Shown here: one piece after another, positions 10,692 to 37,631 of the stretch | How the letters are laid out: each line of letters opens with the position of its first letter | Position numbering within the stretch: the first letter of the stretch is position 1 | Assembly: GCA_964535215.1 (NCBI GenBank) | Contig: CAZHST010000001.1 | Span: 82,621-146,620, forward strand | Source: an uncultured bacterium | GTDB taxonomy: Bacteria; Methylomirabilota; Methylomirabilia; Methylomirabilales; JACQHM01 | Length of the DNA: 64,000 nucleotides | Direction: 5' to 3' | Position numbers and translations under genes: made by a program | Notes under the pieces: model-generated | Database searches by the model: none | Told to the model about the DNA's origin: nothing | What the model saw: only the letters and a program-made list of their open reading frames with translations

Positions 10692-11393
10692 GTGATGACC
10701 GTTCTTCTTTCTCTCTTTCATAAGCCCAGGGTGAAAACCGTCACCCTTCCCACCGGGAAGGGGAGGGTCCATATCGTAGCCTCCTGTCCGGCTGACCTCC
10801 TCCAGACCCTCACGGTGGACCAGGGAATTGGGGCCTTCGGCCACTATGCCCCATCGGCCCCTGCCCTCCAGAAGGAGGCCCTTCTCAAGGTCGCCCATAT
10901 GGAAGGGGGAAGGGTGGTTGCCGCTTACACCGATGACAAACGGTTGGTGGGCTACATCGCCTTCCACCCGCCGGATCCCAGGACCCGTTTCGGACAACTG
11001 GCATCGGAGAGGGTAGTGGAGCTGGGCGGGATTGAGGTGGCGAGGGGGTGGCGGGGCTTGGGGATTGCCAAACGGATGCTGAAAGTCGCCTTTGCCAAGG
11101 GAGCCTTCAGGGACAAGATCGTCTTCGCTGCGGGTTACCGCTGGTGCTGGGACCTTGAGGGGACGGACCTGGAGGTGGGCCGGTACCGACGGATGATGCA
11201 GCGCCTCTTCGAGCGGTACGGTTTCCGGGCCTTCGTCACCGACGAGCCAAATATCGCGGAGGATCCCCTGAACCTGTTTGTCGTCAGGGTCGGCCGCCTG
11301 GTCCCGAAGGCCCGTTTTCGGGCTTTTCAGGCCCTGCTGGTGACCGGGACGCCTGGGGCCGGAAGGGGTGGACGCCTTGCCCGGGGAAGGTGA
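10692..11393 (+). CDS. acuA: AcuA-like GNAT protein acetyltransferase
   Basis: Aligns by eye with B. subtilis AcuA: IVGY..F..PDP..R.......ELG.IEVA...RG.GI...LL, then ...YWHWDL-type CWDLEG and F.TDEPNI. Confidence 0.65.
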   Translation: MMTVLLSLFHKPRVKTVTLPTGKGRVHIVASCPADLLQTLTVDQGIGAFGHYAPSAPALQKEALLKVAHMEGGRVVAAYTDDKRLVGYIAFHPPDPRTRFGQLASERVVELGGIEVARGWRGLGIAKRMLKVAFAKGAFRDKIVFAAGYRWCWDLEGTDLEVGRYRRMMQRLFERYGFRAFVTDEPNIAEDPLNLFVVRVGRLVPKARFRAFQALLVTGTPGAGRGGRLARGR

Positions 11394-11426
11394 TGGATCT
11401 TGCCGGGAAGAAGGGAGGTGAGGAGC

Positions 11427-11609
11427 GTGGAGCTGCTCGAGTACTTTCCTTATGGTGAGGTGGCGACCGAAGCCCCGTCCCCATGGGCGGTGGGTATCCT
11501 CCTCGCCATCCTCGTTGCCGCCGTCATCGGGATGATCTTTGCCATCTCCACGGACAAGGCAATGATCGCGGAGGCCGAGGAACAGGAGGAGCACCGGAAA
11601 GCCGCTTGA
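11427..11609 (+). CDS. Small single-TM protein (60 aa), tandem paralog 1
   Basis: GTG start after GGGAGGTGAGGAG. One TM helix, then an acidic/basic tail ending RKAA. Confidence 0.45.
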   Translation: MELLEYFPYGEVATEAPSPWAVGILLAILVAAVIGMIFAISTDKAMIAEAEEQEEHRKAA

Positions 11610-11651
11610 GGGCCCACCTTTGAACCCTGGTGGTCAAGGAGGTGAGGAAGA

Positions 11652-11834
11652 ATGGAGCCGATTGATCTCCTCCGCGAGATGCCGACAGGAACGGCCGAGG
11701 CCTATGCGGCGGGTGCGTTTCTCCTCTTCCTGGCCTTGGTAACCTTCGTGGGGCTGCTCTATGCTGCCTATACGGAGCGGGCAGAGGCCAAGAAACGGGA
11801 GGCGCAACCTGAAGCATGGCGGAAGGCCGCGTGA
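11652..11834 (+). CDS. Small single-TM protein (60 aa), tandem paralog 2
   Basis: ATG after AAGGAGGTGAGGAAG. Same length and architecture as paralog 1, and the tail also ends RKAA. Confidence 0.5.
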   Translation: MEPIDLLREMPTGTAEAYAAGAFLLFLALVTFVGLLYAAYTERAEAKKREAQPEAWRKAA

Positions 11835-11935
11835 CCTGTGGGAAGGCCGGAGGGGGGTCTTCGTCCCTTTCGGAGACCTCCCTCCGGAAAAGACCATTCC
11901 TGAAGGGCACCAGGCCTTCAGGGGAGGACGAGACG

Positions 11936-12568
11936 ATGAGGGTCGCCCGGTGGATGAAGAAGGATCCGATCACCATCAGCCCGGAGACAGGGGTCTGGGA
12001 GGCGGCGCGCCTCCTCCGGCAGTACCGGATCCGGCACCTTCCGGTGGTGAAAAGGGGAAAACTGGTCGGGATCGTGACGGACCGGGATGTGAAAAGGGTT
12101 CTGCCCTCCCCGGCCACCAGCCTTTCCGTGTACGAGGTCTCCTATCTCCTGGATCGGCTGGAGGTGAAAGAGGTCATGACCAAGGAAGTGATCACCGTCA
12201 GCCCTCTCGTCCCCATCGAGGAGGCGGCGAAGATCATGCATGACCGGAAGATCGGGTGCCTCCCCGTCCTGGAAGGGGAGGCGTTGGTGGGGATCATTAC
12301 CGAGACGGACCTCCTGGCGGCCCTGGTGGAGGTCATGGGGGTCCGGGAGCCCAGCTCCCGCCTGGAGATCGAACTTCCGGATGCTATCGAGGCCCTCGCC
12401 GAAGTGGTAGGGATCCTTCAAAAAGACCGGGTGGCCATTTCGAACCTCCTGGCCGTCCCCTCCAATGGGGAGAAGGTCCTGGTCCTCCGTGTAAAGACCA
12501 TTGATCCCTCATCCACCATCAAGACCCTCCAGCAAGCGGGCTACCGGGTCTCCCCTTCTCCGGGGTGA
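11936..12568 (+). CDS. acuB: AcuB-like CBS-pair protein with a C-terminal ACT-like domain
   Basis: ATG 11936 after GGGGAGGA. Two CBS repeats (IRHLPVV..GKLVGIVTDRDV and IGCLPVLEGEALVGIITETDL). Confidence 0.7.
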   Translation: MRVARWMKKDPITISPETGVWEAARLLRQYRIRHLPVVKRGKLVGIVTDRDVKRVLPSPATSLSVYEVSYLLDRLEVKEVMTKEVITVSPLVPIEEAAKIMHDRKIGCLPVLEGEALVGIITETDLLAALVEVMGVREPSSRLEIELPDAIEALAEVVGILQKDRVAISNLLAVPSNGEKVLVLRVKTIDPSSTIKTLQQAGYRVSPSPG

Positions 12569-12610
12569 AGAGGTCTCACCTGTTTGTCCCGGAGCAGGAA
12601 GGGCCCTCGC

Positions 12611-12639
12611 TTGTTGAGCTGAGGGTCTTTTGTTATGAT
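12611..12639 (+). promoter_or_regulatory. Sigma-70-like promoter candidate (TTGTTG-17-TATGAT)
   Basis: Read directly from the sequence. It lies 70 nt upstream of the Rieske gene, which opens the respiratory cluster. Confidence 0.4.
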
Positions 12640-12709
12640 GCTCCCAGAAAAGACCAGGGGTTAGGGGAGAGGGTGGTAAGGGTTTTCAGTCCTTCTGAGG
12701 AGGAGGGCC

Positions 12710-13270
12710 ATGGCGGCAAAGGAGCCTCTTTCGTTCAAATCGGGCGTTGACCCGCAAAGCGTTCCTCCCGGCCGGAGGCGCTTCATCATCCTTCTTTTGA
12801 GTGCGATCACGTCGGCCATTGCGGGGATCCTGGGCATCCCCTTGGCCGGGTTCTTCGCCCTCCCGGCCCTGAAACGGTCAGAGCTTCGGTGGCTGGAGGT
12901 AGGGCCGGTCTCGAGCTTTAAGGAAGGAGAGATCAGGAAGGTCATTGCAAAGCCCCTTGTCGCCCAGGTCTGGCCCCACGAGACCCCCCCGGTGGCCCTC
13001 TACGTCTTGAACCATGGCGGGGGGAGGTTCACCCTCTTCCACATCCACTGCACCCATGTCGGTTGCCCTGTTCAGTGGAACCCCCAGGCGAACCGGTTCT
13101 TCAGCCCCTGCCATGGGGGCGTCTTCGACCGGGATGGTCGGGTCCTGGCCGGCCCACCGCCCCGTCCCCTGGACCGCTACGAGTACAAGATCGAGAAGGG
13201 GGTCCTGTACGCCGGGCGGATCTACAAGGTCAACGAGAAGCTGGAGTTCGCGGGATGGCAGCATACATGA
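12710..13270 (+). CDS. Rieske [2Fe-2S] subunit of a cytochrome bc/b6f-type complex
   Basis: Twin-arginine signal (PGRRRFII). The Rieske boxes are CTHVGCPV and CPCHGGVF. Confidence 0.9.
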   Translation: MAAKEPLSFKSGVDPQSVPPGRRRFIILLLSAITSAIAGILGIPLAGFFALPALKRSELRWLEVGPVSSFKEGEIRKVIAKPLVAQVWPHETPPVALYVLNHGGGRFTLFHIHCTHVGCPVQWNPQANRFFSPCHGGVFDRDGRVLAGPPPRPLDRYEYKIEKGVLYAGRIYKVNEKLEFAGWQHT

Positions 13271-14649
13271 GCAGGGTTTTGGAGTGGCTCCAGGAACGCC
13301 TCGGCACCCGGGAGCAGCTCTTTAAGTTCCTCTACCGACGTCTCCCTGAAGGGACCACGTGGTGGCACACGTTAGGGAGCGCGACCCTCTTTCTGATCCT
13401 CGTCCAGACCCTGACCGGTTTCTTTTTAGCCTTCTACTACGTCCCCTCCCCCGAGCACGCCTACGACAGCCTGATCTACATCCAGGAGGAGCTTCCCTTC
13501 GGGGCCTTCATCCGGGGGCTCCACCACTGGGGGGCAAGCCTCACCGTAGTGGTCGTCTTCCTCCACATGCTTCGGGTCTTCTTCATGGGGGCCTACAAAT
13601 ACCCCCGGGAGCTTTCCTGGGTTGTCGGGGTCTTCCTGTTCCTCCTCATCATGCTCTTCGGCTTCACCGGTTACCTCCTCCCCTGGGACCAGAAGGCCTA
13701 CTGGGCCACGGTGGTCGGGACCCACATCGCCGAAACGGCCCCCCTGATCGGGGAATACCTCCGGCGGATCCTCCAAGGGGGGGTGGAGGTTGGGGCCAGG
13801 ACCCTGGGGCGCTTCTATGCCGCCCACGTCCTGATCCTCCCCGCCGTCCTCTACGCCCTCATCCTGGTCCATCTTTCCATGGTGATCTATCAGGGGATCG
13901 CCCCGACCCCATGGGGAAGGTTCGGCCTCATCAGGAAAGGGGATTACCAGCGGCTCTACGAGGAGTCCAAAGGGAAGGGAGAGACCTTCTTCGAGCATCT
14001 CCTCCGGGATGGGGTTGTCGCCTTCCTCCTCCTCCTCGTCCTCCTCTGGATGGCGGCTTTTTGGAAGGTCCCGATGGAAGAGGTGGCCGACCCCACCAGC
14101 ACCGACTATGTCCCGAGGCCCGAGTGGTACTTCTACTTTCTGTTCGAGCTGTTGTGGCTCTTCCCCGGGAAGTGGATCCCGGTGGCGACCTTCTATATCC
14201 CCCTGGCGGCGGTCCTCCTCCTCCTCTTCCTCCCTTTCTACGACCGGACGCCGGGGAGGAGCCCTCTGAAGCGACCCGTCGCCTCAGGGATCGCCACGGC
14301 GGCCCTTTTCGCCATCGCCTTTTTGACGTACCAAGGGGCAACGGCCCCTCCCCCTCCGAAAGCAGGGACGGCCCTCCCTGAAGAGGTGAAAGCCCTGCCC
14401 CCCGAGCTGGCCAGAGGGAGGGAGGTTTACGAGGCTCAGGGGTGTTCGGCCTGCCACGTGTTGAAGGGGACCGGGAGTGCCGCCGGGCCGGATCTGACAA
14501 GGATCGGGGCGAGAAGGGATGCGGAATGGTTGAAGCGGTTCCTGAAGGACCCGAGCGCAGTGAGGCCCGGCTCGGTCATGCCCCCCTATGGCGAGCTTCC
14601 CGAGGAGGAGCTGGATGCCTTGGCACGATACCTCGCCTCTTTGAAGTAG
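13255..14649 (+). CDS. Cytochrome b (b6 plus subunit IV fused) with a C-terminal monohaem cytochrome c domain
   Basis: ATG 13255 overlaps the Rieske stop. Motifs: HHWGASL..FLHMLRVF, YLLPWDQKAYWAT and PEWYFYFLFELL. C-terminal CSACH. Confidence 0.9.
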   Translation: MAAYMSRVLEWLQERLGTREQLFKFLYRRLPEGTTWWHTLGSATLFLILVQTLTGFFLAFYYVPSPEHAYDSLIYIQEELPFGAFIRGLHHWGASLTVVVVFLHMLRVFFMGAYKYPRELSWVVGVFLFLLIMLFGFTGYLLPWDQKAYWATVVGTHIAETAPLIGEYLRRILQGGVEVGARTLGRFYAAHVLILPAVLYALILVHLSMVIYQGIAPTPWGRFGLIRKGDYQRLYEESKGKGETFFEHLLRDGVVAFLLLLVLLWMAAFWKVPMEEVADPTSTDYVPRPEWYFYFLFELLWLFPGKWIPVATFYIPLAAVLLLLFLPFYDRTPGRSPLKRPVASGIATAALFAIAFLTYQGATAPPPPKAGTALPEEVKALPPELARGREVYEAQGCSACHVLKGTGSAAGPDLTRIGARRDAEWLKRFLKDPSAVRPGSVMPPYGELPEEELDALARYLASLK

Positions 14650-14661
14650 GAGGGCCGAACG

Positions 14662-15315
14662 GTGATGGCGATCAAGTATGGAGTGGGGATCGGGTGGCTT
14701 CTCCTCCTGTTTGTCGGCGGGTCCGTCTTCCCCTTGGGGGCGGAGGAGCAGTACGTCCTCTGGGGCAATGCCCGGAAGGGGCGTCAGGTCTTTCTCGAGA
14801 AAGGCTGTGGGAACTGTCATGCGATCAGGGGGGTGGGGCCGACCCTGGGGCCCGACCTGGGGAGGATCCCTGGTAAACACCTCACCATGACCCAGATGGC
14901 CGGAACCATGTGGAATCACGCCCCTGCCATGAGACAGATGGCGAAGGAGAAGGGGATGACGTGGAAGCCCTTCAAGGGATCGGAGATGCGGGACCTCATC
15001 GCCTTCCTCTACGCCGTCAGCCTCCTGGATGAGCCAGGGGATCCCCGGCGGGGGGAGCGGCTCTTCGTCGAGAAGGGGTGCGCCACCTGCCACAGTGTCA
15101 GGGGGGAAGGGGGCAAGATCGGCCCGGATCTGAAGAAGTGGAAGCAGTACGGCTCCCCCATCCTGTGGGCGGAGCTGATGTGGGAGCACGCCTTAAAGAT
15201 GGAGGAGAAGGTGCGGGAGTTCAGCCTCCGGTGGCCGAAGTTCGAGGGAAACGAGATGGTGGATCTGATCACCTACATCCAGAAGGAACTCGGTCCAAGG
15301 GCCCCCGCGAGGTAA
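14662..15315 (+). CDS. Dihaem class I cytochrome c
   Basis: Signal or anchor helix. Two CxxCH motifs, CGNCH and CATCH, each in a repeated domain. Confidence 0.85.
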   Translation: MMAIKYGVGIGWLLLLFVGGSVFPLGAEEQYVLWGNARKGRQVFLEKGCGNCHAIRGVGPTLGPDLGRIPGKHLTMTQMAGTMWNHAPAMRQMAKEKGMTWKPFKGSEMRDLIAFLYAVSLLDEPGDPRRGERLFVEKGCATCHSVRGEGGKIGPDLKKWKQYGSPILWAELMWEHALKMEEKVREFSLRWPKFEGNEMVDLITYIQKELGPRAPAR

Positions 15316-15368
15316 CAGGATGAGCTGATGCCAACCTATTGCTGCCGGGGATGTTCGGTGGGGGAACG

Positions 15369-16121
15369 ATGAAACGGATACCTGATCAGCTCATACGTTT
15401 GTCAGTTCCGCTGGTCGTGATTGTCCTTGCCCTTGTTGTCGCCAAGCGGTTCCTCACTCCACCGACCTTTGGTCAGTACGGGCACTACCGGGCGGCTGCT
15501 GTTGATGCTGTTACGGCCCAGGAGATTCAGTATGTGGGAGAGCAGGAATGCGCCAACTGCCATGAAGACATTGTGGCGACAAAAACGCGCTCGTATCACA
15601 GAGGCGTTTCCTGTGAGGTCTGCCATGGTCCGGCCAGGGCCCACACGGAGGCTCCCACCGAACACCGACCGCCAGCCCCAAGGGAGAGGGGCTTTTGCCC
15701 GTTGTGCCACAGCTATAACCGTTCAAGGCCTACCGGATTCCCCCAGATCATCCCCCTCACCCATAACCCGGGGAAGCCCTGTATCTCCTGTCACAATCCC
15801 CACGATCCAACGCCCCCCCACGTGCCGAAAGAGTGCGGGGCCTGTCATGGTGACATCGAGAGGACCAAGCTGGTGTCGTCCCATGTCAACCTGCCGTGCA
15901 CGAGATGTCATGAAACTCCTCGCGGGCACAGGGTAAATCCCAGGGTGGTTCGGGCCAACAAGCCGACGAGTCGGGAGTTTTGCGGCGGATGTCATGCGAA
16001 GGAAGCGACAGGTCCCAGGGAAATTCCGCGAATTGACATCGCAACCCATGGGGAGCGGTATGTCTGCTGGGAGTGTCATTACCCTCATCTCCCCGAGACC
16101 TATGCAGGAGCGGCGAGGTGA
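15369..16121 (+). CDS. Membrane-anchored octahaem cytochrome c
   Basis: N-terminal TM helix. Eight CxxCH motifs: CANCH, CEVCH, CPLCH, CISCH, CGACH, CTRCH, CGGCH, CWECH. Confidence 0.85.
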   Translation: MKRIPDQLIRLSVPLVVIVLALVVAKRFLTPPTFGQYGHYRAAAVDAVTAQEIQYVGEQECANCHEDIVATKTRSYHRGVSCEVCHGPARAHTEAPTEHRPPAPRERGFCPLCHSYNRSRPTGFPQIIPLTHNPGKPCISCHNPHDPTPPHVPKECGACHGDIERTKLVSSHVNLPCTRCHETPRGHRVNPRVVRANKPTSREFCGGCHAKEATGPREIPRIDIATHGERYVCWECHYPHLPETYAGAAR

Positions 16122-16921
16122 AAAACACGTACAGTCGAAGGGAATTCCTGAAACGGATGCGCGGGTACCTGAAAAAGATTATGCTGGTTCTGCCGTTCCT
16201 TTCCCCTCCAGGGGTTGGGAGGATGATCATCGGCGGGTCCCGGTCAAGGGAGGCCGAGGCGAGCCAGCCAGGGGACTACGACCCAAGCCAGCACTACTAC
16301 GCTATGGGCATTTACGTGGATAGGTGCATCGGGTGTGGGCTCTGTGTCCAGGCGTGTAAGGTAGAAAACCATGTGCCGCGAGAACCGTTTTTTTTCAGGA
16401 CATGGGTTGAGCGCTACCAGATCCCGGGCGATGGTGACACCCTGGTGGATAGCCCCAATGGGGGATTGGAGGGGTTCCCGGAGCCCTCGGGTCTGAAAAC
16501 AGATGTGCTCCGATCATTCTTTGTGCCGAAACTCTGCAACCACTGCGACAATCCACCCTGCGTCCAGGTGTGCCCTGTGGGGGCGACTTTTAAGACCAGG
16601 GATGGGGTCGTTCTCGTGGATGAGAAGTACTGCATCGGTTGCCGGTATTGCATCCAGGCCTGTCCCTACGGGGCCAGGTACCTCGATCCCAGGACCCGAA
16701 CCGCCGATAAGTGCACCTTTTGTTACCACCGGATCGTCAGGGGGTTAAAGCCGGCTTGCGTTGAGGTCTGTCCTACCCAGGCGCGGGTCTTCGGGGAATT
16801 GGGGGCGCTGAGCAGCCCTCTGGTGAGGTTTCGCCGGATGAACAAGGTCCGGGTGCTCAAGCCGAATCTTAACACCCAGCCGAAGGTGTACTACGCGAAT
16901 CTGGACGGGGAGGTCTCGTAG
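16118..16921 (+). CDS. Tat-exported 4x[4Fe-4S] ferredoxin subunit (NrfC/PsrB/DsrO type)
   Basis: GTG 16118 after AGGAG. Twin-arginine signal SRREFLK. Cluster motifs CIGCGLCVQAC, CNHCDNPPCVQVCP and CIGCRYCIQACP. Confidence 0.85.
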   Translation: MKNTYSRREFLKRMRGYLKKIMLVLPFLSPPGVGRMIIGGSRSREAEASQPGDYDPSQHYYAMGIYVDRCIGCGLCVQACKVENHVPREPFFFRTWVERYQIPGDGDTLVDSPNGGLEGFPEPSGLKTDVLRSFFVPKLCNHCDNPPCVQVCPVGATFKTRDGVVLVDEKYCIGCRYCIQACPYGARYLDPRTRTADKCTFCYHRIVRGLKPACVEVCPTQARVFGELGALSSPLVRFRRMNKVRVLKPNLNTQPKVYYANLDGEVS

Positions 16922-16923
16922 CC

Positions 16924-18183
16924 ATGGAACCTGTGAACGAGCGGTTATGGTCCGCGCTCCAGCAGGTGAGCGGGTATATCTATCCCAATGAGATTGAGCT
17001 CCACTGGGGCCTCCTGATCGTGATCTACCCGTATATTACCGGACTCGTGGCAGGGGCCTTTATCCTGGCCTCCCTGGAGAAGGTCTTCAACGTGAGGGAG
17101 GTGGCGCCTACCTACCGGCTGTCTCTCCTGACCGCCCTTGCGTTCCTGATCGTCGCACCCCTTCCGCTCCTGGCGCACCTCGGGCACCCTGAGCGGGCTT
17201 ATGAGATCTTCTTCACCCCTAACCTCCGATCGGCCATGGCGGCGTTTGGTTTTGTCTATGCCTGGTATCTGATGGCGGTGCTTTTGCTCGAGATCTGGTT
17301 TGAGTACAGGAAGGATCTTATCCTGTGGTCCCATGAGGAGAAGGGGTTGAAGAGGTTCGTTCATAGGCTTATCGCCCTTTTCTCCACGGACATCTCGGAG
17401 GAGGCCCTCCGGTTTGATCAGAAGGCCGCGGAGGTGATCACCATCGTCGGGATCCCGTCCGCCTTCCTGCTTCATGGATACGTGGGCTTTATCTTCGGCT
17501 CCGTTAAGGCCAATCCGTGGTGGAGCAGCGTCCTGATCCCGATCGTGTTCCTCGCCTCCGCCATCGTTTCCGGGATCGCTTTGGTTCTTCTCCTCTACAT
17601 GATCATCACGCTCCTTCGCTCGGAAGAGATCGACATGAGATGCCTCGACAGGCTGGCCGAGTTTCTCCTGTATGCCCTCATCGTTGACTTCTCCCTGGAG
17701 ATCCTGGATTTTATTCACCGGTTGTATGAATCGGAGGAGTCTATCAAGATCCTCTCCAGGATGATCTCCAGCAAACTCTTCATCAGTCTCATCGTCATGC
17801 AGGTCCTTTTGGGAACGTTACTACCGGCGGTTGCCTTGGCCGCCTTTCGATTTTCCCGTCTTCCCGAGGAGCTGAGGAGGCTGGCGTACTTCATCTCTGC
17901 CATCATGATCGAGATTGGTATCTTCAGCACCCGCTGGAACGTGGTGATAGGGGGGCAGCTCTTCTCCAAAAGTCTCAGGGGGCTGACCGTGTACAAGATT
18001 GAGCTGATGGGGTCTGAGGGGCTGTTTATGTCCATGATCCTCCTCACCCTTCCCTTCCTGATCCTTTACGGGTTGCTAAAGGTTTTGCCCCCCTGGCGGG
18101 CTTCTCGCCAAGCCGGGTCTCTTGCCTTACCGGCTGAAATGGAACTATCCTCTGGGCGGGGCGGATCCGGGCCCATGCCCTGA
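16924..18183 (+). CDS. NrfD/PsrC-family quinone-interacting integral membrane subunit
   Basis: 419 aa with about 8-10 TM helices. It directly follows the NrfC-like gene, the typical pairing. Confidence 0.8.
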   Translation: MEPVNERLWSALQQVSGYIYPNEIELHWGLLIVIYPYITGLVAGAFILASLEKVFNVREVAPTYRLSLLTALAFLIVAPLPLLAHLGHPERAYEIFFTPNLRSAMAAFGFVYAWYLMAVLLLEIWFEYRKDLILWSHEEKGLKRFVHRLIALFSTDISEEALRFDQKAAEVITIVGIPSAFLLHGYVGFIFGSVKANPWWSSVLIPIVFLASAIVSGIALVLLLYMIITLLRSEEIDMRCLDRLAEFLLYALIVDFSLEILDFIHRLYESEESIKILSRMISSKLFISLIVMQVLLGTLLPAVALAAFRFSRLPEELRRLAYFISAIMIEIGIFSTRWNVVIGGQLFSKSLRGLTVYKIELMGSEGLFMSMILLTLPFLILYGLLKVLPPWRASRQAGSLALPAEMELSSGRGGSGPMP

Positions 18184-18299
18184 GGGTGGAGGAGAAGGAG
18201 CGGGGGTTCGGTGGTCGGGTTCAAAGGGGACGAGGAGCCTGGCCCCGGGGCTCCCGCGAGGTGAGGGAACCTGTTGTCAGCGCGAAGGAGGGAGAAACG

Positions 18300-18653
18300 A
18301 TGGATCAGAGACGGAGTCTGGTGGTGGTCTTTGTGGTCGTGTTCCTGGCCTTCGGTTTGGCCCTGGGATCGGCCCTGGCCCAGCAGAAACCCAAGATGCC
18401 GGCCGATTTCTCCTTTGAGAAAGGGAAAGGAAGCCCGGGGACAGTCACCTTCAGCCACGAGAAGCACTTCGACAAGAACCTGAAATGTACCGAGTGCCAC
18501 GTCAAGGTCTTCAAGATGAAGAAGGGGACCTCGGGGAAGCTCACGATGGCGGCCATGAACGAGGGGAAGTTCTGCGGGGCCTGCCATAACGGGAGCAAGG
18601 CGTTCAGCACGAAGGACACGGCGGGTTGCACCCGGTGCCATGTGAAAGGGTAA
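18300..18653 (+). CDS. Trihaem c7/c3-type periplasmic cytochrome
   Basis: ATG 18300 after GAAGGAGGGAG. Signal peptide. Motifs CTECH, CGACH and CTRCH, plus VTFSHEKH. Confidence 0.85.
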   Translation: MDQRRSLVVVFVVVFLAFGLALGSALAQQKPKMPADFSFEKGKGSPGTVTFSHEKHFDKNLKCTECHVKVFKMKKGTSGKLTMAAMNEGKFCGACHNGSKAFSTKDTAGCTRCHVKG

Positions 18654-20086
18654 AGGCTGAAAGGGGTGTAGCTTCCTGGGGGGAGGGCCCTTTCAGCGAC
18701 CTTCTCTCTTTGGTCGTTTTCCTCCTCATGGGAATCCTTCCGGCGTTTGCTGAAGGGTCCCCCCCCTCCTCCGAGGACTGCCTCGCCTGCCACAGCGACC
18801 GGGAGCTGTCCAAAGCAGGGCCAGGGGGGCGCCTCATCTCCCTTTACGTTGATCAGGCCTCCTTCCAAGGATCAGTCCACGGCTCCCTTCCCTGCGTCCG
18901 GTGCCACACCGATGCAACGGCGATCCCCCATCCCGAGACCTTGAAAAAGGTCCGCTGTAAGCGTTGTCACGAGGTGATCCTCTCCGGGGCCCACGCTGGC
19001 CAAAGGGGGAGGGGGCCGACCTGCGCGGCCTGCCATGGTTCCCATGGGATCCGACCGGCCCTGGAAGCGGAGCCCGGGATCTGCCGAACCTGCCACGGGG
19101 CCGTTGTCAAGGTGTATGGGGAGAGCGTCCATGGCCGGGGCTTGGCCCGGGGGGAGCAGGAGGTCGCCTCGTGCCACCACTGCCACGGTCCAGCCCACGA
19201 GGTGAAGAAGGCGCGGGACCCTGGCTCCCCCGTCTATCCCTTGAACCTCCCCCGGACCTGCGGGGTCTGTCACGGCGATCCCGAGCTCGCCAAGCGGCAC
19301 GGCATCCCCGTGGCGAACGCGTACCAGCTGTACATGGACTCGATCCACGGCCGGGCCCTGGCGAAAAGCGGCCTCCTGGTTGCAGCCAACTGCTCGAGCT
19401 GCCACGGGTTTCATGAGATCAAACCAAAGGACGATCCAGCTTCTAAGGTCTACCGGACGAACATCCCGGGCACCTGCGGGGCCTGCCACGCCGGCATCCT
19501 GGATGACTACTTCGAGGGAGTTCATGGGGAGGCGGTCAGGGCCGGAAAGCTGGCGGCCCCGGTCTGCATGGACTGCCACACGGCCCACGAGATCGCCCGG
19601 GTCGAGACGGTGGCCTGGCAACTGGAGATTGTCAGGGAGTGCGGGACCTGTCATCAGGAGTCTTTGAGGACCTACCGGGACACCTTCCACGGGCAGGTGA
19701 CGGCCTTGGGCTTTACCCGCGTGGCCCGCTGCTCCGATTGCCACGGGGCCCACCGGATCCTCCCCGCCTCCAATCCCCGGTCTTCCATCGCGCCGGCAAA
19801 CCTGGTCGCCACCTGCCGGAGGTGTCACCCAAGGGCGAATGAGAACTTTGTCCGCTTCTCCCCCCATGCCGACCCGACGAACAAAGACCGGAACCCGGGC
19901 CTCTACTATGCTGCCCGCTTTATGAACATCCTCATGATCGGGGTCTTCGCCTTCTTCGGTCTCCATACCTCCCTGTGGCTCTCCCGCTCCCTTCTCGAGC
20001 GGGCAAGGCCGAGGAGGCCGCCGGAGGAGCCTGAGGAGCCGGACCAGAAGGAAGGGGAGGGAGGGGATGGAGCGAAAGAGCCTTGA
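18626..20086 (+). CDS. Multihaem cytochrome c (13 CxxCH) with a C-terminal TM helix
   Basis: Thirteen CxxCH motifs counted in the translation. C-terminal helix MNILMIGVFAFFGL. Start uncertain; ATG 18626 overlaps the previous gene by 28 nt. Confidence 0.85.
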   Translation: MHPVPCERVKAERGVASWGEGPFSDLLSLVVFLLMGILPAFAEGSPPSSEDCLACHSDRELSKAGPGGRLISLYVDQASFQGSVHGSLPCVRCHTDATAIPHPETLKKVRCKRCHEVILSGAHAGQRGRGPTCAACHGSHGIRPALEAEPGICRTCHGAVVKVYGESVHGRGLARGEQEVASCHHCHGPAHEVKKARDPGSPVYPLNLPRTCGVCHGDPELAKRHGIPVANAYQLYMDSIHGRALAKSGLLVAANCSSCHGFHEIKPKDDPASKVYRTNIPGTCGACHAGILDDYFEGVHGEAVRAGKLAAPVCMDCHTAHEIARVETVAWQLEIVRECGTCHQESLRTYRDTFHGQVTALGFTRVARCSDCHGAHRILPASNPRSSIAPANLVATCRRCHPRANENFVRFSPHADPTNKDRNPGLYYAARFMNILMIGVFAFFGLHTSLWLSRSLLERARPRRPPEEPEEPDQKEGEGGDGAKEP

Positions 20087-20906
20087 CCAGGCCCCGCGAT
20101 ACCACCTCAGGATCCACCTCTACCACCGGATCCTGCACGGCCTCCTGATGACGAGCTTTCTGGGGCTGGCCGCCACGGGGATGCCCCTTCGGTTCAACCG
20201 GGCGGCCTGGGCTGTTGGCTTCGCCCACACCATCGGAGGCTTCGGGGCGATCCTCTTCTTCCACAAGACCTTTGCCGTCCTCCTGACCCTCTGCTTCCTC
20301 CTCCATCTCGGGTATGTCTTCCACCTGGCCTTTGTCCGAGGGGAGGTCGGCGTCTTCTGGGGCCCCTCCTCCATGGTCCCCCAGCCCAAGGACTTCCTGG
20401 ACATGTTCCAGCACTTCCGGTGGTTCTTCGGGATGGGGCCGAAGCCCCGATTCGGCCGTTTCACCTACTGGGAGAAGTTCGACTACTGGGCCGTCTTCTG
20501 GGGGATGGCCATCATCGGCACCTCAGGCTATGTGATGTGGTTCTCCTCGTTCTTTGCCAGGTTCCTCCCGGGGTGGGTCTTCAACATCGCCCTTCTGATC
20601 CACGCCGACGAGGCCCTTTTGGCAGTCTGGTTCATCTTCGCCATCCACTTCTTCAACAGTCACCTCCGCCCCGGCAAGTTCCCTCTGGATCTCGTCATCT
20701 TCACCGGAAGGGTGAGCGAGGAGGAGCTTCAGGAGGAGCGTCCGGCAGAGTATGAACGCCTGGTCAAGGAGGGGGGCGTAAAGGCCGTTTGGGTCGATCC
20801 CCCGCCGCTGTGGCTGAAGAACTTCGGGAGGATCGTCGGGTTCACCGTGGTCTTTACCGGCTTCCTCCTGTTCGGCCTGACCCTCCTGGCCTTCTTGAAC
20901 GAATGA
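20067..20906 (+). CDS. FdnI/HydC-type dihaem cytochrome b membrane protein
   Basis: Four to five TM helices with conserved His residues (HRILHGLL, FHKTF, HADEAL, HFFNSH). Architecture of the Ni/Fe-hydrogenase b-type cytochrome family. Confidence 0.75.
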   Translation: MERKSLDQAPRYHLRIHLYHRILHGLLMTSFLGLAATGMPLRFNRAAWAVGFAHTIGGFGAILFFHKTFAVLLTLCFLLHLGYVFHLAFVRGEVGVFWGPSSMVPQPKDFLDMFQHFRWFFGMGPKPRFGRFTYWEKFDYWAVFWGMAIIGTSGYVMWFSSFFARFLPGWVFNIALLIHADEALLAVWFIFAIHFFNSHLRPGKFPLDLVIFTGRVSEEELQEERPAEYERLVKEGGVKAVWVDPPPLWLKNFGRIVGFTVVFTGFLLFGLTLLAFLNE

Positions 20907-21979
20907 CGATGGGTGCGAAATATTTCAGGGGATGGCTAGGGGGGGGAGCCGCCATTGTTGTCCTCCTGCTGGCGGTGGCCTCCTCGGGTGCAGAACCGCT
21001 TCCGTCGGAGGTGGAGTTTTGCCTTTCCTGCCATAGCGAGAAGACCTTGGAGCTGACCCTGAGGAGCGGGGAGAGGCGCTCCCTCTTCGTGGACGGGAAG
21101 GTCTTTGCCCGCTCCATCCACGGGGACAAGCTCTCCTGTACCGATTGCCACCGGGACATCGAGGCCTATCCCCACCCGGAGAGGGTGTTCAGGAACCTGC
21201 GCGAGTTTACCCTGGCCTACTACGAGAGCTGCAAGGGATGCCACTTCGACAACTACACGAAGACCCTGGACAGCGTGCACTACCGGGTCCTCGCCAGGGG
21301 GGACCTGAGGGCCCCTCTCTGCGTTGATTGCCATGGGGCCCACGACGTGACTGACCCTGACCTGCCCAGATCCAGGATCTCCAGGACCTGTGCGACGTGC
21401 CACGGGGAGGTGTACCAGCGGTACGCCGGGAGCGTCCACGGCAAGGCCCTCCTCCAGGAGGGGAACGTGGATGTCCCCGTCTGCACCGACTGCCACCGCT
21501 CCCACGATATCGAGGACCCCCGGACCGCCTCCTTCCGTTTGAAGACCCCCGAGCTCTGCGCCACATGCCACACCAACGGGGAGCTCATGAGGAGGTACGG
21601 CCTCTCGACCAACGTCCTCCAGACATACCTGAAGGATTTTCACGGGATGACGGCGTCCTTCTACAGGAGAGAGCAGATCACGCCGGCTGCCTTCACCGCC
21701 GTCTGCACCGATTGCCACGGCGTTCATGAGATCTTACCGGTCAAGGATCCAAGATCCGCTGTGATGAAGGCGAACCTGGTCAGGGTCTGCCGGAAGTGCC
21801 ACCCGGAGGCCACAGAGAATTTCCCGGCGGCCTGGCTCTCCCACTACGAGCCGAGCCCCGAGAAGGCCCCGCTGGTTTACTACACGAAGCTCTTCTACCA
21901 GTTCTTCATCCCCTTCGTCGTCTTGGGGTTGGTTCTCCAGATCCTCCTCCACCTCTGGCGGGTTGTCGTCAACCGGTGA
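20903..21979 (+). CDS. Multihaem cytochrome c (9 CxxCH) with a C-terminal TM helix
   Basis: ATGA overlap with the previous stop. Signal peptide and nine CxxCH motifs. Its C-terminus is homologous to that of the 13-haem protein (CR[RK]CHP..[NT]ENF). Confidence 0.85.
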   Translation: MTMGAKYFRGWLGGGAAIVVLLLAVASSGAEPLPSEVEFCLSCHSEKTLELTLRSGERRSLFVDGKVFARSIHGDKLSCTDCHRDIEAYPHPERVFRNLREFTLAYYESCKGCHFDNYTKTLDSVHYRVLARGDLRAPLCVDCHGAHDVTDPDLPRSRISRTCATCHGEVYQRYAGSVHGKALLQEGNVDVPVCTDCHRSHDIEDPRTASFRLKTPELCATCHTNGELMRRYGLSTNVLQTYLKDFHGMTASFYRREQITPAAFTAVCTDCHGVHEILPVKDPRSAVMKANLVRVCRKCHPEATENFPAAWLSHYEPSPEKAPLVYYTKLFYQFFIPFVVLGLVLQILLHLWRVVVNR

Positions 21980-21988
21980 ATTTGGGAG

Positions 21989-22741
21989 ATGAGGCGGGAA
22001 ACGTCGGGATACGTGATCCGGTTCAGCGTGAGGCAGCGGGTCGAGCACCTCCTCATCATGGTGCTCTTCCTCATCCTCGCCTTAACGGGTCTCCCCCAGA
22101 AGTTCTTCGAGGCGGGGTGGGCCCAGGGGTTGATCCTCCAGCTGGGCGGGATTGATCGGGTCCGCTGGTTCCACCGCACCGCCGGCCTCCTCTTCACCCT
22201 GGTGGCCATCGAGCATCTAGGGGTCATCCTCTCGTTGGCCGCGCTGAAGCGGATCAAGCTTAGCATGATCCCGGCCAAGAAGGACTTTCAGGATGCCATT
22301 CTTATGCTACGATATTATCTGGGGCTCTCGGAGGAGCAGGCCCAGTTCGACCGGTATGACTACCGGCAGAAGTTTGAGTACTGGGGCCTGGTCTTCGGCG
22401 GGGTGGTCATGATCCTCACCGGGTTTCTCCTCTACTTCCCGACCTTCTTCACCCGCTTCCTCCCGGGTGAGGTGATTCCGGCGGCGAAGGTGGCCCACTC
22501 GAGCGAGGGGCTCCTGGCGTTCCTGGTGGTGATCATCTGGCACGTCTACAACGCCCACCTGAACCCCGACGTCTTCCCCTTCGACGCCTCGATCTTCACC
22601 GGGAGGATCAGCGAGGAGCGGATGCGGAAGGAGCATCCCTTGGAGCACGCCCGTCTTGCCGCAAAGGGGGAAGCGGCGGCCTTCAAGGAGGAGACGGCCG
22701 AGAGCCTTTCCCGGGAAACCAACGGCGATAAACCACCTTAG
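21989..22741 (+). CDS. FdnI/HydC-type dihaem cytochrome b membrane protein (second copy)
   Basis: Paralog of 20067..20906 ([27 protein letters not shown]). It follows the 9-haem cytochrome. Confidence 0.75.
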
Positions 22742-22750
22742 CGTCATCGG

Positions 22751-24643
22751 ATGAACCCCTTCCGTTTCTTCAAGAGGAGCCTTCGGGGGCGGATCATCCT
22801 CCTGGTCGGCCTGGGGATGGTGGCCCTGGCAGGGATCCTCCGACTCTCCAGCCTGTGGGAGAGCCGGCTCCTCTTCGATCGGGCCTTAAGCGAACGTCAG
22901 CGTCTCGCCCAGGCGTTGGCTGACCATCTGGACTACATCCTCAAGTCGAACCTGATCATCCTCCAGGATGTGGCCCTGGGAGCCAGGGAAGGCCTCGGGA
23001 GGGGTGATCTGAAATCCGTGAAAGCGGCCCTCCGGGAGGCCTACCTTCGCTCCCTCTTCACCGAAGGGGTCTTCCTCCTGGACCGGAGGGGTCGGATCGT
23101 CTGGATCGAACCCCAGCGCCCTTCCCGGATGCACGAGGACTTCTCCTCCCTCCCCCCGGTCCGCCGGGCCCTGGAGGCCGGAAGGCCGGAGGTCTCGGAC
23201 CTTGTCATCAATGGGGGGAAACGGATCTATGCCGTGGTGCCGATCCGGGACTGGGGCGGGGAGCTGGTGGGGGCCGTGGGGGGGACCCTCGACCCCGGGA
23301 GCCCCCGCTTCCGCTCCCTCCTCCACCCGATCCGGCTCGGCGACACGACCTATCTGGAACTCGTGGACGGCCACGGGATCGTCCTGGCCTCGACGAAGGC
23401 AGGGCGGGCTTTCCTGGAGAGTGACCACGGCCGCTTCCTGGCCGGTTTGATCCAGGAGAGGAGATCGGTGGTCGGGACCTGCCACAGTTGCCACGAAGGG
23501 GAGGGGCTTTCGGGGCGGGAGAGGGAGGTCATCGCCTTTGCCCCGTTGACCGCTGCCCCCTGGGGGATCAGCATCCGTCAGGCCGAAAAGGAGGCCCTGG
23601 CTCCGGCCTTCACAATAGAGCGGCGCCTCTTTTTCCTTGGCTCCCTGACGATCCTTCTGGCGCTCCTCTTCGCCTGGGGAGTGGCCAGGAGTGTGACGAA
23701 GCCCTTAGGCGTCCTGACCCAAGCCGCCCAACGGATTGCCAGCGGGGACCTGGATGAGCCGATCCCGCCCCTAGGCGAGGACGAGATCGGCCGCCTGGCC
23801 CGATCCTTCGATCAGATGCGGGCGGCGCTCCAGGCCTCTCTGGAGGCGATCTCGGAAGGGAAGCGGGAGCTGGAGAGGAGGGTGCAGGAGCGGACGAGGG
23901 AGCTGGAGAGCCTCTATCAGGAGCTTCGGAGGAAAGAGGAGCTTCGGGGGGAGCTGTTAAAGAAGGTGATCGTGGCCCAGGAGGAGGAACGGAGGCGGAT
24001 CGCCCGGGAGCTCCACGACGAAACCAGTCAGGCCCTGGCCGCCCTCCTCCTGTCCGTCGAGACGGGCATCCAAAGCCCTCCCCAGGAGGTCAGGGAGAGG
24101 CTCCACCGGATAAAGGCCCTGGCCGATCGGACCCTGGACAGCATTCACCGCCTGATCTTCGATCTCCGCCCCTCCGTCCTGGACGATCTCGGCCTCGTTT
24201 CAGCCCTCCGGTGGTCCGCCGAGAGTCGCCTGGAGCCTATGGGGATTGACCTCTCCTTTGAGGTCATCGGATCGGAGCGGAGGCTTCCACCCGAGATCGA
24301 GACGGCCCTCTTCAGGATCGGCCAGGAGGCCATCACCAACATCGCGAGGCATGCCGAAGCCGAGGGGGTCAGGATCACGGTCGAGTTCGGCGAGGAGGTC
24401 GTCCGCCTCCAGGTCGAGGACGACGGGAAGGGGTTTGACCCTGAAGAGGTGACCAGGTCTGTCAAAGGGGCTCGGGGGTTGGGGCTCCTCGGGATGAGGG
24501 AGCGGACGGCCCTCTTGGAGGGGACCCTCACCATCCAGTCCGAGCCGGGAGGGGGGACGCGGGTGACTGTGGAGGTCCCCCTGCCGGGGCTTCGGACCGG
24601 GACGCCAGGCGCCCATGAAGATCAGGGTTCTCATCGCCGATGA
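22751..24643 (+). CDS. Sensor histidine kinase (HAMP, HisKA_3, HATPase) with a CxxCH motif in the periplasmic sensor domain
   Basis: Two TM helices flank a sensor domain of about 270 aa that contains VVGTCHSCHEG. HAMP domain. The H-box is RIARELHDETSQ (NarX/LiaS type). G-boxes present. Confidence 0.9.
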   Translation: MNPFRFFKRSLRGRIILLVGLGMVALAGILRLSSLWESRLLFDRALSERQRLAQALADHLDYILKSNLIILQDVALGAREGLGRGDLKSVKAALREAYLRSLFTEGVFLLDRRGRIVWIEPQRPSRMHEDFSSLPPVRRALEAGRPEVSDLVINGGKRIYAVVPIRDWGGELVGAVGGTLDPGSPRFRSLLHPIRLGDTTYLELVDGHGIVLASTKAGRAFLESDHGRFLAGLIQERRSVVGTCHSCHEGEGLSGREREVIAFAPLTAAPWGISIRQAEKEALAPAFTIERRLFFLGSLTILLALLFAWGVARSVTKPLGVLTQAAQRIASGDLDEPIPPLGEDEIGRLARSFDQMRAALQASLEAISEGKRELERRVQERTRELESLYQELRRKEELRGELLKKVIVAQEEERRRIARELHDETSQALAALLLSVETGIQSPPQEVRERLHRIKALADRTLDSIHRLIFDLRPSVLDDLGLVSALRWSAESRLEPMGIDLSFEVIGSERRLPPEIETALFRIGQEAITNIARHAEAEGVRITVEFGEEVVRLQVEDDGKGFDPEEVTRSVKGARGLGLLGMRERTALLEGTLTIQSEPGGGTRVTVEVPLPGLRTGTPGAHEDQGSHRR

Positions 24644-25262
24644 CCATGCCCTCTTCCGGGAGGGGATCAGGATCCTCCTCTCCGGCTATGACGATCTGGA
24701 GGTGGTGGGGGAGGCGGCCGACGGGAGGGAGGCCATCGAGCGGGCAAGGGAATGCCGCCCCGACATCGTCCTGATGGACATCGCCATGCCGGGGTTGGGG
24801 GGGCTGGAGGCGACCCTGGAGCTGAAGAAACTCCTTCCCGGGGTGAAGATCCTGATCCTCACCCAATACGACAACCGGGAGTACCTCTACCGCTTCTTCA
24901 AGGCCGGGGTTTCGGGTTACGTGTTGAAGCGGGCGGCGGGGACCGAACTGGTCGCCGCCATCAGGGCCGTGTATCAGGGGGGAATCTTCCTCCACCCGGA
25001 GGTCGCCCCCGCCGTTGTCGAAGGGTATCTGGGGGGGCTCAGGCCTTCCGAACAGGAGGATGCCTATGAGACCTTGACGGATCGGGAGAAGCAGGTCTTG
25101 AAGCTGGTCGCCGAGGGGAAGACCAACAAGGAGATCGCCGGCATCCTGGGGATCAGCGTGAAGACTGCCATGGGCCACCGGGCGAACCTGATGGAGAAGC
25201 TCGGCATCCATAACAGGGCCGAGCTGGTCAAGTTCGCCCTTCGGCGGGGGATCATCGAGTAA
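24615..25262 (+). CDS. NarL/FixJ-family response regulator (REC plus LuxR HTH)
   Basis: IRVLIADDH...VLMDIAMPG receiver domain. C-terminal LTDREKQVLKLVAEGKTNKEIA HTH motif. Confidence 0.9.
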   Translation: MKIRVLIADDHALFREGIRILLSGYDDLEVVGEAADGREAIERARECRPDIVLMDIAMPGLGGLEATLELKKLLPGVKILILTQYDNREYLYRFFKAGVSGYVLKRAAGTELVAAIRAVYQGGIFLHPEVAPAVVEGYLGGLRPSEQEDAYETLTDREKQVLKLVAEGKTNKEIAGILGISVKTAMGHRANLMEKLGIHNRAELVKFALRRGIIE

Positions 25263-26253: not shown

Positions 26254-26336
26254 GCCGGGGGGCCAGGGGAAAATGCGGCCCTCCTACCTTCCCTGGGAAG
26301 AGATGACACGCGGAAAGGTCGAGAGGAGGGAAAGAG

Positions 26337-30974: not shown

Positions 30975-30995
30975 GACGCTCTCCCTCTTAAAGGA

Positions 30996-32466: not shown

Positions 32467-32499
32467 GATCCTGCCTCCTTTGGCGTGAGCCTTCAGCTT

Positions 32500-37618: not shown

Positions 37619-37631
37619 GCTGATCACCCTC

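Follow-up and report, generated by a model that had tools for sequence, protein, structure and literature searches.

A compact string of quinone-linked respiratory modules with 36 haem c motifs in an uncultured bacterium of the Methylomirabilota

To our knowledge, only in Geobacter and Shewanella have the links between the quinone pool and periplasmic or external redox partners been worked out in detail. In Geobacter, Cbc4 (CbcSTU) comprises a membrane-anchored multihaem cytochrome c, a protein with four [4Fe-4S] clusters and an integral membrane subunit (bioRxiv 10.1101/2025.04.14.648717), and CbcBA combines a multihaem cytochrome c ending in a histidine-bearing transmembrane helix with a dihaem cytochrome b of four transmembrane helices; the fourth ligand for the b haems of CbcB is probably contributed by the C-terminal helix of CbcA (bioRxiv 10.1101/2021.04.15.440034). 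Here, we describe a string of thirteen genes (g01 to g13) on a metagenome-derived stretch of 64,000 nucleotides from an uncultured bacterium assigned to the Methylomirabilota (GenBank assembly GCA_964535215.1, contig CAZHST010000001.1, forward-strand positions 82,621 to 146,620), which as a whole is called the window in the following, to which all coordinates refer, and which is also present as an identical contig in SRR11582147. The genes encode a Rieske/cytochrome b unit, a trio of octahaem cytochrome c, NrfC-like ferredoxin and NrfD-like membrane protein, a trihaem cytochrome c7, two pairs of multihaem cytochrome c and FdnI-like cytochrome b, and a two-component system. The cluster is one lineage's way of assembling parts from a respiratory toolkit that is widespread and used in mix-and-match fashion, and it probably, though by no means certainly, serves as a branched electron-transfer hub between the (mena)quinone pool and periplasmic cytochromes.

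Modules of related composition have been reported from several organisms. NrfBCD, NhcABCD and QrcABCD all unite a multihaem cytochrome c, an NrfC-like ferredoxin and an NrfD-like subunit, and a 2021 review of the NrfD families does not list a family of octahaem cytochromes with NrfCD among those it covers (PMC8076601). NrfCD proteins together with multihaem cytochromes c have been proposed as quinol:cytochrome reductases in Melioribacter roseus and in MBNT15 (PMC3534657, PMC9386147). Clusters resembling alternative complex III (ACIII) are described in a paper on KSB1 and porin-cytochrome clusters in a preprint on extracellular electron transfer in peat, and a multi-omics paper on Melioribacter leaves the NrfCD genes unmentioned. 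In the literature that we searched, single modules are covered, and the gene neighbourhood of the present cluster is not described.

Eleven open reading frames, g01 to g11, lie on the + strand between positions 12710 and 22741, exactly where an earlier, sequence-only reading of the window had placed them, and searches against Pfam, NCBIfam and the PDB agree with the identities that it had assigned. Its total of 36 CxxCH motifs was reproduced when the translations were recounted (1, 2, 8, 3, 13 and 9 in g02, g03, g04, g07, g08 and g10, respectively); by our own estimate, about 0.01 such motifs would be expected by chance in the roughly 3,300 residues, and the variants CxxxCH and CxxxxCH do not occur in the eleven translations. 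Its central observation, that three kinds of quinone-interacting module (Rieske/cytochrome b, NrfD and two FdnI-like cytochromes b) stand in one tightly spaced string on the same strand, holds as well. Other statements need correction. The Rieske/cytochrome b complex had been called fused to the NrfCD module; the two are adjacent, self-contained units. Overlaps or gaps of about 45 nt or less had been given for all junctions. When gene starts are chosen on the basis of ribosome-binding sites, independent gene calls on identical contigs and a close relative (locus L083, a 50-kb contig from another sample, IMG 3300003892, with 94% DNA identity to the window), the spacings from g01 to g11 are -16, 15, 53, -4, 2, 116, -19, -20, -4 and 9 nt. 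Junctions inside modules are overlaps or gaps of at most 15 nt, and the two larger gaps, 53 nt between g03 and g04 and 116 nt between g06 and g07, coincide with module borders. The 116-nt gap is truly non-coding, because a 1-nt indel in L083 at this place would break a longer reading frame. Finally, the proposed extent is right for the eleven genes but not as the end of the string, which runs past position 22741 with a kinase gene (g12) after 9 nt and a regulator gene (g13), and ends at 25262.

A GC-rich hairpin followed by a T-run was found by RNA folding at 12601–12639 on the + strand, 3' of the CBS gene located upstream. It overlaps a possible sigma-70-like promoter (TTGTTG, 17 nt, TATGAT), and the segment is conserved in L083. 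The terminator/promoter scan made no call at this hairpin, and a terminator/promoter pair that marks the start of the transcription unit is plausible but unproven. Internal terminators had been named in the sequence-only reading as a feature that would split the cluster. A consensus scan detected no terminator-like site in any intergenic gap; all matches on the + strand lie inside genes, and the number of terminator-like sites (11) is below the 13.3 expected from shuffled sequence. Promoter-like sites are not in excess and none falls into an intergenic gap, an Rfam scan of positions 11000–26500 returned no element, and the 116-nt gap contains a hairpin that lacks a T-run and whose stability does not exceed that of shuffled sequence (z-score -0.9). 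From this arrangement we infer that the string may be co-transcribed. Since the two larger gaps (53 and 116 nt) coincide exactly with borders between modules, internal promoters are possible there, and the question arises whether the string is a respiratory gene island in which adjacent but independent complexes, each with its own promoter, serve different pathways. The rest of the window, which is also dense in genes for energy metabolism, would fit such an island, but the string keeps to a single strand throughout, and its modules are not separated by any terminator-like site; the comparison with relatives given below bears on the same question.

The middle of the string is occupied by the trio g04 to g06. 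Gene g04 (15369–16121) encodes an octahaem cytochrome c with 8 CxxCH motifs and an N-terminal transmembrane anchor. The spacing of its motifs, 21/28/28, occurs twice and the two halves are 34% identical; to judge by its sequence, the protein consists of a four-haem unit that has been duplicated internally in tandem. Its match to NrfH reaches an E value of only 0.03, and a catalytic octahaem cytochrome of the MccA or Otr type was rejected, as the protein is only 250 amino acids long and haem-dense. Gene g05 (16118–16921), which overlaps g04 in the sequence GTGA, encodes a ferredoxin of 267 amino acids related to NrfC and PsrB (PF13247, 101 bits), with the motif SRREFLK for export by the twin-arginine translocation (Tat) pathway and 16 cysteines for four [4Fe-4S] clusters. 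It is closest to PsrB (2vpw_B, E 3e-48) and matches the iron-sulfur part of ActB at E 2e-16. Gene g06 (16924–18183) encodes an integral membrane subunit with a presumed menaquinol site, which belongs to the NrfD/PsrC family according to its score for PF03916 (132 bits, cut-off 25.8) and its approximately 9–10 helices. It misses the NCBIfam equivalogs NrfD (50 versus 348) and DsrP (52 versus 350), and a search of the PDB by sequence, with the protein alone or with a profile of 38 sequences, gave no match. An AlphaFold (AF2) model computed with 38 homologues (predicted local distance difference test score, pLDDT, 74; predicted template modelling score, pTM, 0.77) is closest in a fold search to ActC of ACIII (Foldseek template modelling score 0.63–0.64, E 9e-8) and much further from PsrC. 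At least 8000 relatives of g06 are present in the protein database, and those retrieved are 65–85% identical across phyla.

Several assignments of the trio as a whole were considered and rejected: a true Nrf, Ttr, Dsr, Qrc or Hmc complex, because the scores stay far below every NCBIfam equivalog cut-off; the Ohc complex of Desulfovibrio, which also contains an octahaem cytochrome c and an iron-sulfur protein, because the membrane subunit of that complex does not resemble NrfD and is a haem b protein; and a full ACIII, because ActB1, ActD, ActE and ActF are absent from the string.

How the string is conserved was analyzed in two ways, by a genome search anchored on the NrfD protein g06, from which 80 species-level loci out of at least 574 relatives were taken and the proteins of the window mapped onto them, and by a reverse search in metagenomes anchored on g02. 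In L083, the order of genes is that of the window, from the CBS gene through g01 to g13 to a PAS-LuxR gene and a membrane protein gene. The ratio of non-synonymous to synonymous substitution rates (dN/dS) between the two sequences is 0.08–0.25 for all fourteen genes compared, and every gene is therefore kept by purifying selection. At greater distance, it is the trio that stays together. The octahaem cytochrome adjoins NrfC and NrfD in nearly all complete loci of the 80 genomes, which come from more than 15 phyla and encode NrfD proteins 65–74% identical to g06. According to the record titles, these loci include Acidobacteriota, Gemmatimonadota, Ignavibacteria, Bacteroidota, Calditrichota, Zixibacteria, Eisenbacteria, KSB1, Latescibacterota, Krumholzibacteriia, Methylomirabilota, Dadabacteria, Binataceae, Myxococcales, Deferribacteres, Marinimicrobia and others; the closest labelled metagenome-assembled genomes (MAGs) are termed 'Deltaproteobacteria bacterium' and stem from groundwater.

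Other modules of the window are found again and again close to the trio. Within 10 kb, a Rieske/cytochrome b unit is present in 26 of the 80 loci (33%), a multihaem cytochrome of the g08/g10 family in 40 (50%), an FdnI-like cytochrome b in 20 (25%), and both a Rieske/cytochrome b unit and an FdnI-like cytochrome b in nine (11%). With 26, 20 and nine of 80 trio genomes carrying other modules at this distance, co-location is recurrent. Assuming one to three operons per genome of about 4 Mb, we estimate that a Rieske/cytochrome b unit would occur within 10 kb by chance in about 1% of cases, so that its co-location is, by the same estimate, about 30-fold above chance. Gene order and orientation vary between phyla. 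In the loci L023 (from a MAG labelled Ignavibacterium album, DYHV01000043.1), L030, L037 and L081 (Bacteroidota), the trio, one or more multihaem c/b pairs, a Rieske/cytochrome b unit and a further multihaem cytochrome c share one strand in an order unlike that of the window. The I. album genome paper describes a species without a Rieske/cytochrome b complex; in L023, such a complex lies beside the trio and multihaem c/b pairs, whereas the paper on the type strain reports none. A groundwater MAG labelled 'Deltaproteobacteria' (L021) carries a c7 gene followed by counterparts of g04 to g06, g08 to g11, the kinase and the regulator, colinear with the window and 48–82% identical, on a contig that stops before any Rieske gene could appear.

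The single units also lead a life of their own. Among 37 trio loci with at least 8 kb of sequence on both sides, 19 contain none of the other modules, and L084, in spite of an NrfD that is 85% identical to g06, has a different upstream region and no adjacent Rieske/cytochrome b genes. The closest long relative of g02 (L094, 78%) belongs to a stand-alone group of genes for a cupredoxin, a Rieske protein, a cytochrome b-c and a dihaem cytochrome c beside a copper P-type ATPase; a cupredoxin gene adjoins the closest Rieske/cytochrome b-c relatives at 9021–12052 in L094 and at 2944–3975 in L085. Remoter relatives of g02 (L107, L139, L146, L148, L169) are sometimes accompanied by multihaem c/b pairs, in L148 also by an octahaem cytochrome nearby, and in L107 and L169 a multihaem c/cytochrome b pair, with kinase and/or regulator, occurs without the trio. 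By comparison of sequences, the cluster in the window is an assembly of five units, g01–g03, g04–g06, g07, g08–g09 and g10–g13. The comparison of synteny proposed together with the sequence-only reading gives the full order in L083 and recurrent co-location on the one hand, and varying order and orientation and units that also exist alone on the other. For a mere island of independent complexes, the units found alone (the L094 group, the 19 of 37 flanked trio loci, and L084), the variable order and orientation and the 53- and 116-nt gaps at module borders all speak in favour, but neither the exact conservation of order at 94% nucleotide identity nor a co-location far above chance in genomes of more than 15 phyla is what one would expect from it. 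On balance, we consider independence of the complexes rather unlikely.

Downstream of the trio, g07 (18300–18653) encodes a secreted trihaem cytochrome c7 of the PpcA type, whose start at 18300 is backed by the ribosome-binding site AGGAGG and whose assignment is clear from TIGR04257 (76 bits, cut-off 40), from PF14522 (65.6) and from matches to the c7 domains of GSU1996 with E values from 1e-50 (3ov0) to 2e-14. It is followed by two pairs of genes. The first consists of g08 (18635–20086), whose product, by motif count and transmembrane prediction, is a 13-haem cytochrome c that starts with a signal peptide and ends in a histidine-bearing transmembrane helix (FFGLHTSLW), and g09 (20067–20906), which encodes its partner, an FdnI-like b-type cytochrome with histidines in transmembrane helices that scores just below the cut-off of PF01292 (28.1 versus 30.1 bits) and is 38% identical to g11 (E 9e-55). 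The second pair is formed by g10 (20903–21979), encoding, by the same methods, a 9-haem cytochrome c that again ends in a transmembrane helix with histidine (QILLHLW), and g11 (21989–22741), encoding an FdnI-like dihaem cytochrome b with four transmembrane helices (PF01292, 54 bits versus 30.1). The distribution of histidines over helices 1 to 4 of g11 (1, 1, 0, 2) is the FdnI pattern and the protein matches Escherichia coli FdnI (1kqf_C) at E 3e-9; the FdnI equivalog TIGR01583 is missed (68.6 versus 115.85). As g08 and g10 are paralogues (32–34% identity), just as g09 and g11 are (38%), the pairs arose by duplication of a two-gene unit.

Seven of nine multihaem cytochromes encoded ahead of an FdnI-like cytochrome b, g08 and g10 included, have a histidine-bearing C-terminal transmembrane helix, and none of twelve homologous 9- to 11-haem cytochromes encoded behind Rieske/cytochrome b genes does. 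This agrees with the published description of CbcA and CbcB. In five loci (L023, L030, L035, L037, L053), the g08 family contains open reading frames of 645–890 amino acids, and some of its 11- and 13-haem members end in cytochrome-b-like transmembrane helices; these are apparent natural c-b fusions, as in CbcL.

All multihaem proteins of the string have enough additional histidines for bis-histidine ligation, and they are so compact and haem-dense that there is no room for a catalytic site. This bears on the idea that the genes are a set of quinol dehydrogenases for one soluble periplasmic reductase encoded elsewhere, acting for example on nitrite, N-oxides or sulfur compounds. Precedents are available: reductases for nitrite, sulfite and polysulfide draw on modules of the NrfCD type (PMC8076601), the Rieske/cytochrome b genes of Caldithrix lie in a Nap/eHao cluster and have been proposed to reduce multihaem cytochromes (PMC5317091), and some loci related to ours contain molybdopterin oxidoreductases beside further NrfC-NrfD pairs (family c11). 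However, neither the window nor L083 encodes a catalytic reductase subunit, the multihaem cytochromes themselves offer no site for catalysis, and the NCBIfam equivalog cut-offs for NrfC, NrfD, TtrB and DsrO/DsrP are missed. Dedication to a single reductase is therefore very improbable in our view.

The string begins with the Rieske/cytochrome b unit. Gene g01 (12710–13270) encodes a Rieske [2Fe-2S] protein (PF00355, 33.8 bits) with a twin-arginine N-terminus (RRRF) followed by a single transmembrane helix (residues 25–43), that is, a protein with the hallmarks of Tat export and N-terminal anchoring, and overlaps the cytochrome b gene g02 by 16 nt. Its box I is normal (CTHVGC), while box II (both within residues ~113–140) reads S-P-C-H-G-G as compared with the canonical CPCH. 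The cysteine three residues before the box II histidine, which in solved Rieske proteins, with numbering after the bovine structure, is a cluster ligand, is replaced by serine, and g01 thereby departs from the canonical set of CxH for box I and CxxH, besides the disulfide cysteines, for box II. L083 has the identical codon for this serine. When 1.8 billion representatives were searched exhaustively for Rieske relatives, box II was CxCH in 138 of the 150 best matches and SxCH in eight, and the four closest to g01 are all of the SxCH type. Genes of this type sit in genuine Rieske/cytochrome b operons, and Rieske genes beside the trio in other phyla have a normal C(A/P)CH box. We found no paper on the SPCH variant in the literature searched. 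Possibilities are that the serine oxygen would act as a ligand, or that the neighbouring cysteine would take over with loss of the disulfide.

Cytochrome b6, subunit IV and, at the C-terminus, a class I cytochrome c with a single haem are joined in the product of g02 (13255–14649), a protein of 464 amino acids with seven transmembrane helices, as assigned by Pfam, NCBIfam and PDB searches (PF00033, 174 bits; best PDB match cytochrome b6, 1vf5_A, E 4e-50). The histidine pairs for the b haems are present in helices 2 and 4 with b6-type spacing, the PEWY motif is located at residue 289, and there is no cysteine at the position for haem ci in the b6 part, the N-terminus having been read by eye only. 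The b6 part scores 234 bits with the NCBIfam model for ExtP, under the cut-off of 290. Gene g03 (14665–15315) encodes a secreted dihaem class I cytochrome c with two CxxCH motifs and accompanies g01 and g02 also in L094, L098 and L164; like the c domain of g02, it is Met-rich.

At the other end of the string, g12 (22751–24643) encodes a sensor histidine kinase with dCache, HAMP, HisKA_3 and HATPase domains and g13 (24615–25262), overlapping it by 29 nt, a response regulator of the NarL/LuxR type, both identified by domain searches. The periplasmic dCache domain of g12 contains a CHSCH motif at residue 244, and CH(S/G)CH is kept in the orthologues of L020, L021 and L026. Because CxxCH is conserved in these three other orthologues, which stand beside such cytochrome pairs, the sequence suggests that g12 is a haem-c sensor. 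Blocks of multihaem cytochrome c, cytochrome b, kinase and regulator are also found in L021 and L107, while in L169 the pair is accompanied by the regulator but no kinase. The two-component system probably tunes expression to the redox state of the periplasm.

Taken as a hub with four inner-membrane complexes, each a point of entry or exit for electrons, the string would work as follows. The b6-type Rieske/cytochrome b complex would pass electrons via its own class I haem c to the secreted dihaem cytochrome c g03. The trio would form a minimal ACIII-like complex, in which NrfD handles quinol, the Tat-exported ferredoxin relays the electrons and the anchored octahaem cytochrome delivers them. 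The two c/b pairs would constitute paralogous CbcBA-like complexes, each made up of an FdnI-like dihaem cytochrome b and a periplasmic cytochrome with 13 or 9 haems, whose C-terminal helix would sit in the membrane and probably supply a b-haem ligand. The trihaem c7 and the dihaem cytochrome c would be periplasmic shuttles. In this scheme, electrons would flow in the direction of quinol oxidation, and the parallel modules may each cover a range of redox potential of their own, as an analogy to ImcH, CbcL and CbcBA of Geobacter suggests. The partners of the cluster may be extracellular or of high potential, and its proteins may associate in a physical supercomplex. Several observations weigh against a hub. 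The Rieske protein has no canonical box II cysteine ligand, which makes a textbook Q cycle in the first complex less assured; the gaps on the module borders could hold promoters; each module also occurs alone in other genomes, so that the modules may be functionally independent; and the 64-kb window contains no gene for a terminal reductase, an oxidase, an outer-membrane conduit or an extracellular cytochrome. Downstream of the cluster, where an outer-membrane conduit was sought, a PAS-LuxR regulator and a polytopic membrane protein are encoded instead.

Electrons could also run in the other direction through part of the string. FdnI acts as menaquinone reductase in formate dehydrogenase-N, and it is the closest solved relative of g11. 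As putative low-potential cytochromes with bis-histidine ligation, g08 and g10 could feed electrons via the FdnI-like cytochromes b to menaquinone, which would be reduced at the cytoplasmic side, and menaquinol would be re-oxidized periplasmically by the Rieske/cytochrome b complex or NrfCD, with His/Met-ligated class I cytochromes passing the electrons on to a high-potential acceptor. Such a redox loop from periplasm to periplasm, or electron uptake, would conserve energy without a cytoplasmic substrate. Low-potential-type multihaem cytochromes and Met-rich class I cytochromes c are indeed encoded in one string, the closest Rieske/cytochrome b relatives have a cupredoxin, which is typically a carrier of high potential, linked to them, and Qrc provides a precedent for an electrogenic loop with both sites on the periplasmic side (PMC6303296). 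On the other hand, Geobacter CbcBA and CbcL act as quinol oxidases (bioRxiv 10.1101/2021.04.15.440034), and no enzyme for the donor or the acceptor side is encoded nearby. We regard the loop as improbable and retain the hub with outward electron flow as the preferred reading.

A bolder combination, to which we give only slight credence, would join several of these ideas: a self-contained, energy-conserving quinone loop with periplasmic entry through the multihaem c/b pairs and periplasmic exit through the Rieske/cytochrome b complex or NrfCD, maybe as one supercomplex with 36 c-type and 6 b-type haems, with a Rieske cluster in which serine stands for a cysteine ligand, and built from a toolkit spread by gene transfer and widespread in anaerobes of many phyla. 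If true, anaerobes from a wide range of phyla would have a so far overlooked means of living on electrons that pass from one external redox partner to another.

Further respiratory genes are present in the window, in which no tRNA or marker genes were found. The only other multihaem open reading frame lies outside the cluster at 47992–49491 (+) and encodes an ImcH-like membrane cytochrome of 499 amino acids with 6 CxxCH motifs and an N-terminal part of the NapC/NirT type; it is 70% identical to a family whose genes immediately adjoin the octahaem-NrfCD trio in 11 further loci, and is followed by a gene for a Fer4_5 protein of 658 amino acids (49785–51761). A second respiratory cluster on the opposite strand, 36632–43675 (-), encodes both subunits (alpha and beta) of an electron-transferring flavoprotein, an HdrD-like CCG protein, two GcvH-like proteins, an HmcC/HybB-like NrfD protein (345 bits, below cut-off) and an HmcB/HybA-like ferredoxin. 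Next to it, at 29451–36632 (-), the large subunit of a NiFe-hydrogenase, an HdrA-like flavoprotein and a large CCG/iron-sulfur protein are encoded, which together resemble a module of the Mvh/Hdr type and point to an anaerobic lifestyle. A P-type ATPase with HMA domain is encoded 6.5 kb upstream of the cluster (3748–6246), and no cupredoxin was seen in the window.

The single parts of the cluster will be of little surprise to the specialist; what is notable is their compact assembly, the conservation and the associations of the trio and the serine-type Rieske clade. Counterparts of three types of quinol:cytochrome module from the inner membrane of Geobacter (Cbc4-like, CbcBA-like and Cbc6-like) are united within 10 kb, and a fourth, ImcH-like, follows 26 kb away. 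The octahaem-NrfC-NrfD trio is among the best-conserved respiratory modules without a known role and draws Rieske/cytochrome b as well as multihaem c/cytochrome b modules into its neighbourhood again and again. Together with its associations and the small clade of Rieske proteins with serine in place of a cluster-ligand cysteine, it offers concrete targets for biochemistry, and these genes are a possible set of genomic markers by which electron transfer in the periplasm or to the outside could be recognized in uncultured lineages.

When the cluster is set against the known systems, the Geobacter complexes come closest. The trio resembles Cbc4 in its three-part architecture, but the NapC/NirT-like cytochrome c of Cbc4 is tetrahaem, whereas g04 carries eight haems as two four-haem repeats; here the comparison is one of architecture only. 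Units of a four-haem cytochrome, NrfC and NrfD do exist in L042 and L050, with NrfD proteins only 24–25% identical to g06, and the NrfD of the trio therefore represents a different lineage. Likewise by architecture only, g08–g09 and g10–g11 correspond to CbcBA in the histidine-bearing C-terminal helix, the four-helix dihaem cytochrome b and the order of c before b, but they differ in having 13 and 9 haems instead of 7 and a NarL-type two-component system instead of sigma-54/BccR. Resemblance to Cbc6 (GSU2930-2935) is provided by the b6 part of g02, which matches ExtP, the b cytochrome of that region, below the cut-off. The Cbc clusters of Geobacter are dispersed, unlike the single string of the window.

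With ACIII (ActABCDEF), the trio shares the principle of an N-terminally anchored multihaem cytochrome c, a periplasmic module with four iron-sulfur clusters and an NrfD-type quinol subunit, but it lacks the molybdopterin-like ActB1 domain as well as ActD, ActE and ActF, has eight haems instead of five and shows only 16–18% identity to ActC, so that, of the features that distinguish ACIII, the ActC-like fold of g06 is the only shared one. NrfBCD and QrcABCD are similar in composition, but the scores of the trio are far under the equivalog cut-offs (NrfC 155 versus 378, NrfD 50 versus 348, QrcC 98 versus 400). The NrfCD modules of Melioribacter and MBNT15 have in common with it the concept of a reductase that links quinol to periplasmic cytochromes and does without a catalytic subunit, and the trio itself is carried by two Melioribacteraceae MAGs (L015, L016); in contrast to the present locus, no link to Rieske/cytochrome b genes or multihaem c/cytochrome b pairs is described in the respective papers. 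With the b6-type complexes (Firmicutes-type bc), the Rieske/cytochrome b unit shares the b6-like histidine spacing in helix D, a subunit IV with PEWY, a c-type domain following subunit IV and a Rieske gene upstream, but it combines b6, subunit IV and cytochrome c in one polypeptide and has SPCH in box II of the Rieske protein; its association with multihaem cytochromes recalls the Rieske/cytochrome b genes of the anammox bacterium Kuenenia and of Caldithrix. The sequence-only reading placed the cluster well beyond a canonical bc1/b6f operon. Since each module has a known counterpart in Geobacter Cbc4, CbcBA/CbcL and Cbc6, in ACIII or in b6-type bc complexes, the cluster is a new arrangement and not a new kind of respiratory system.

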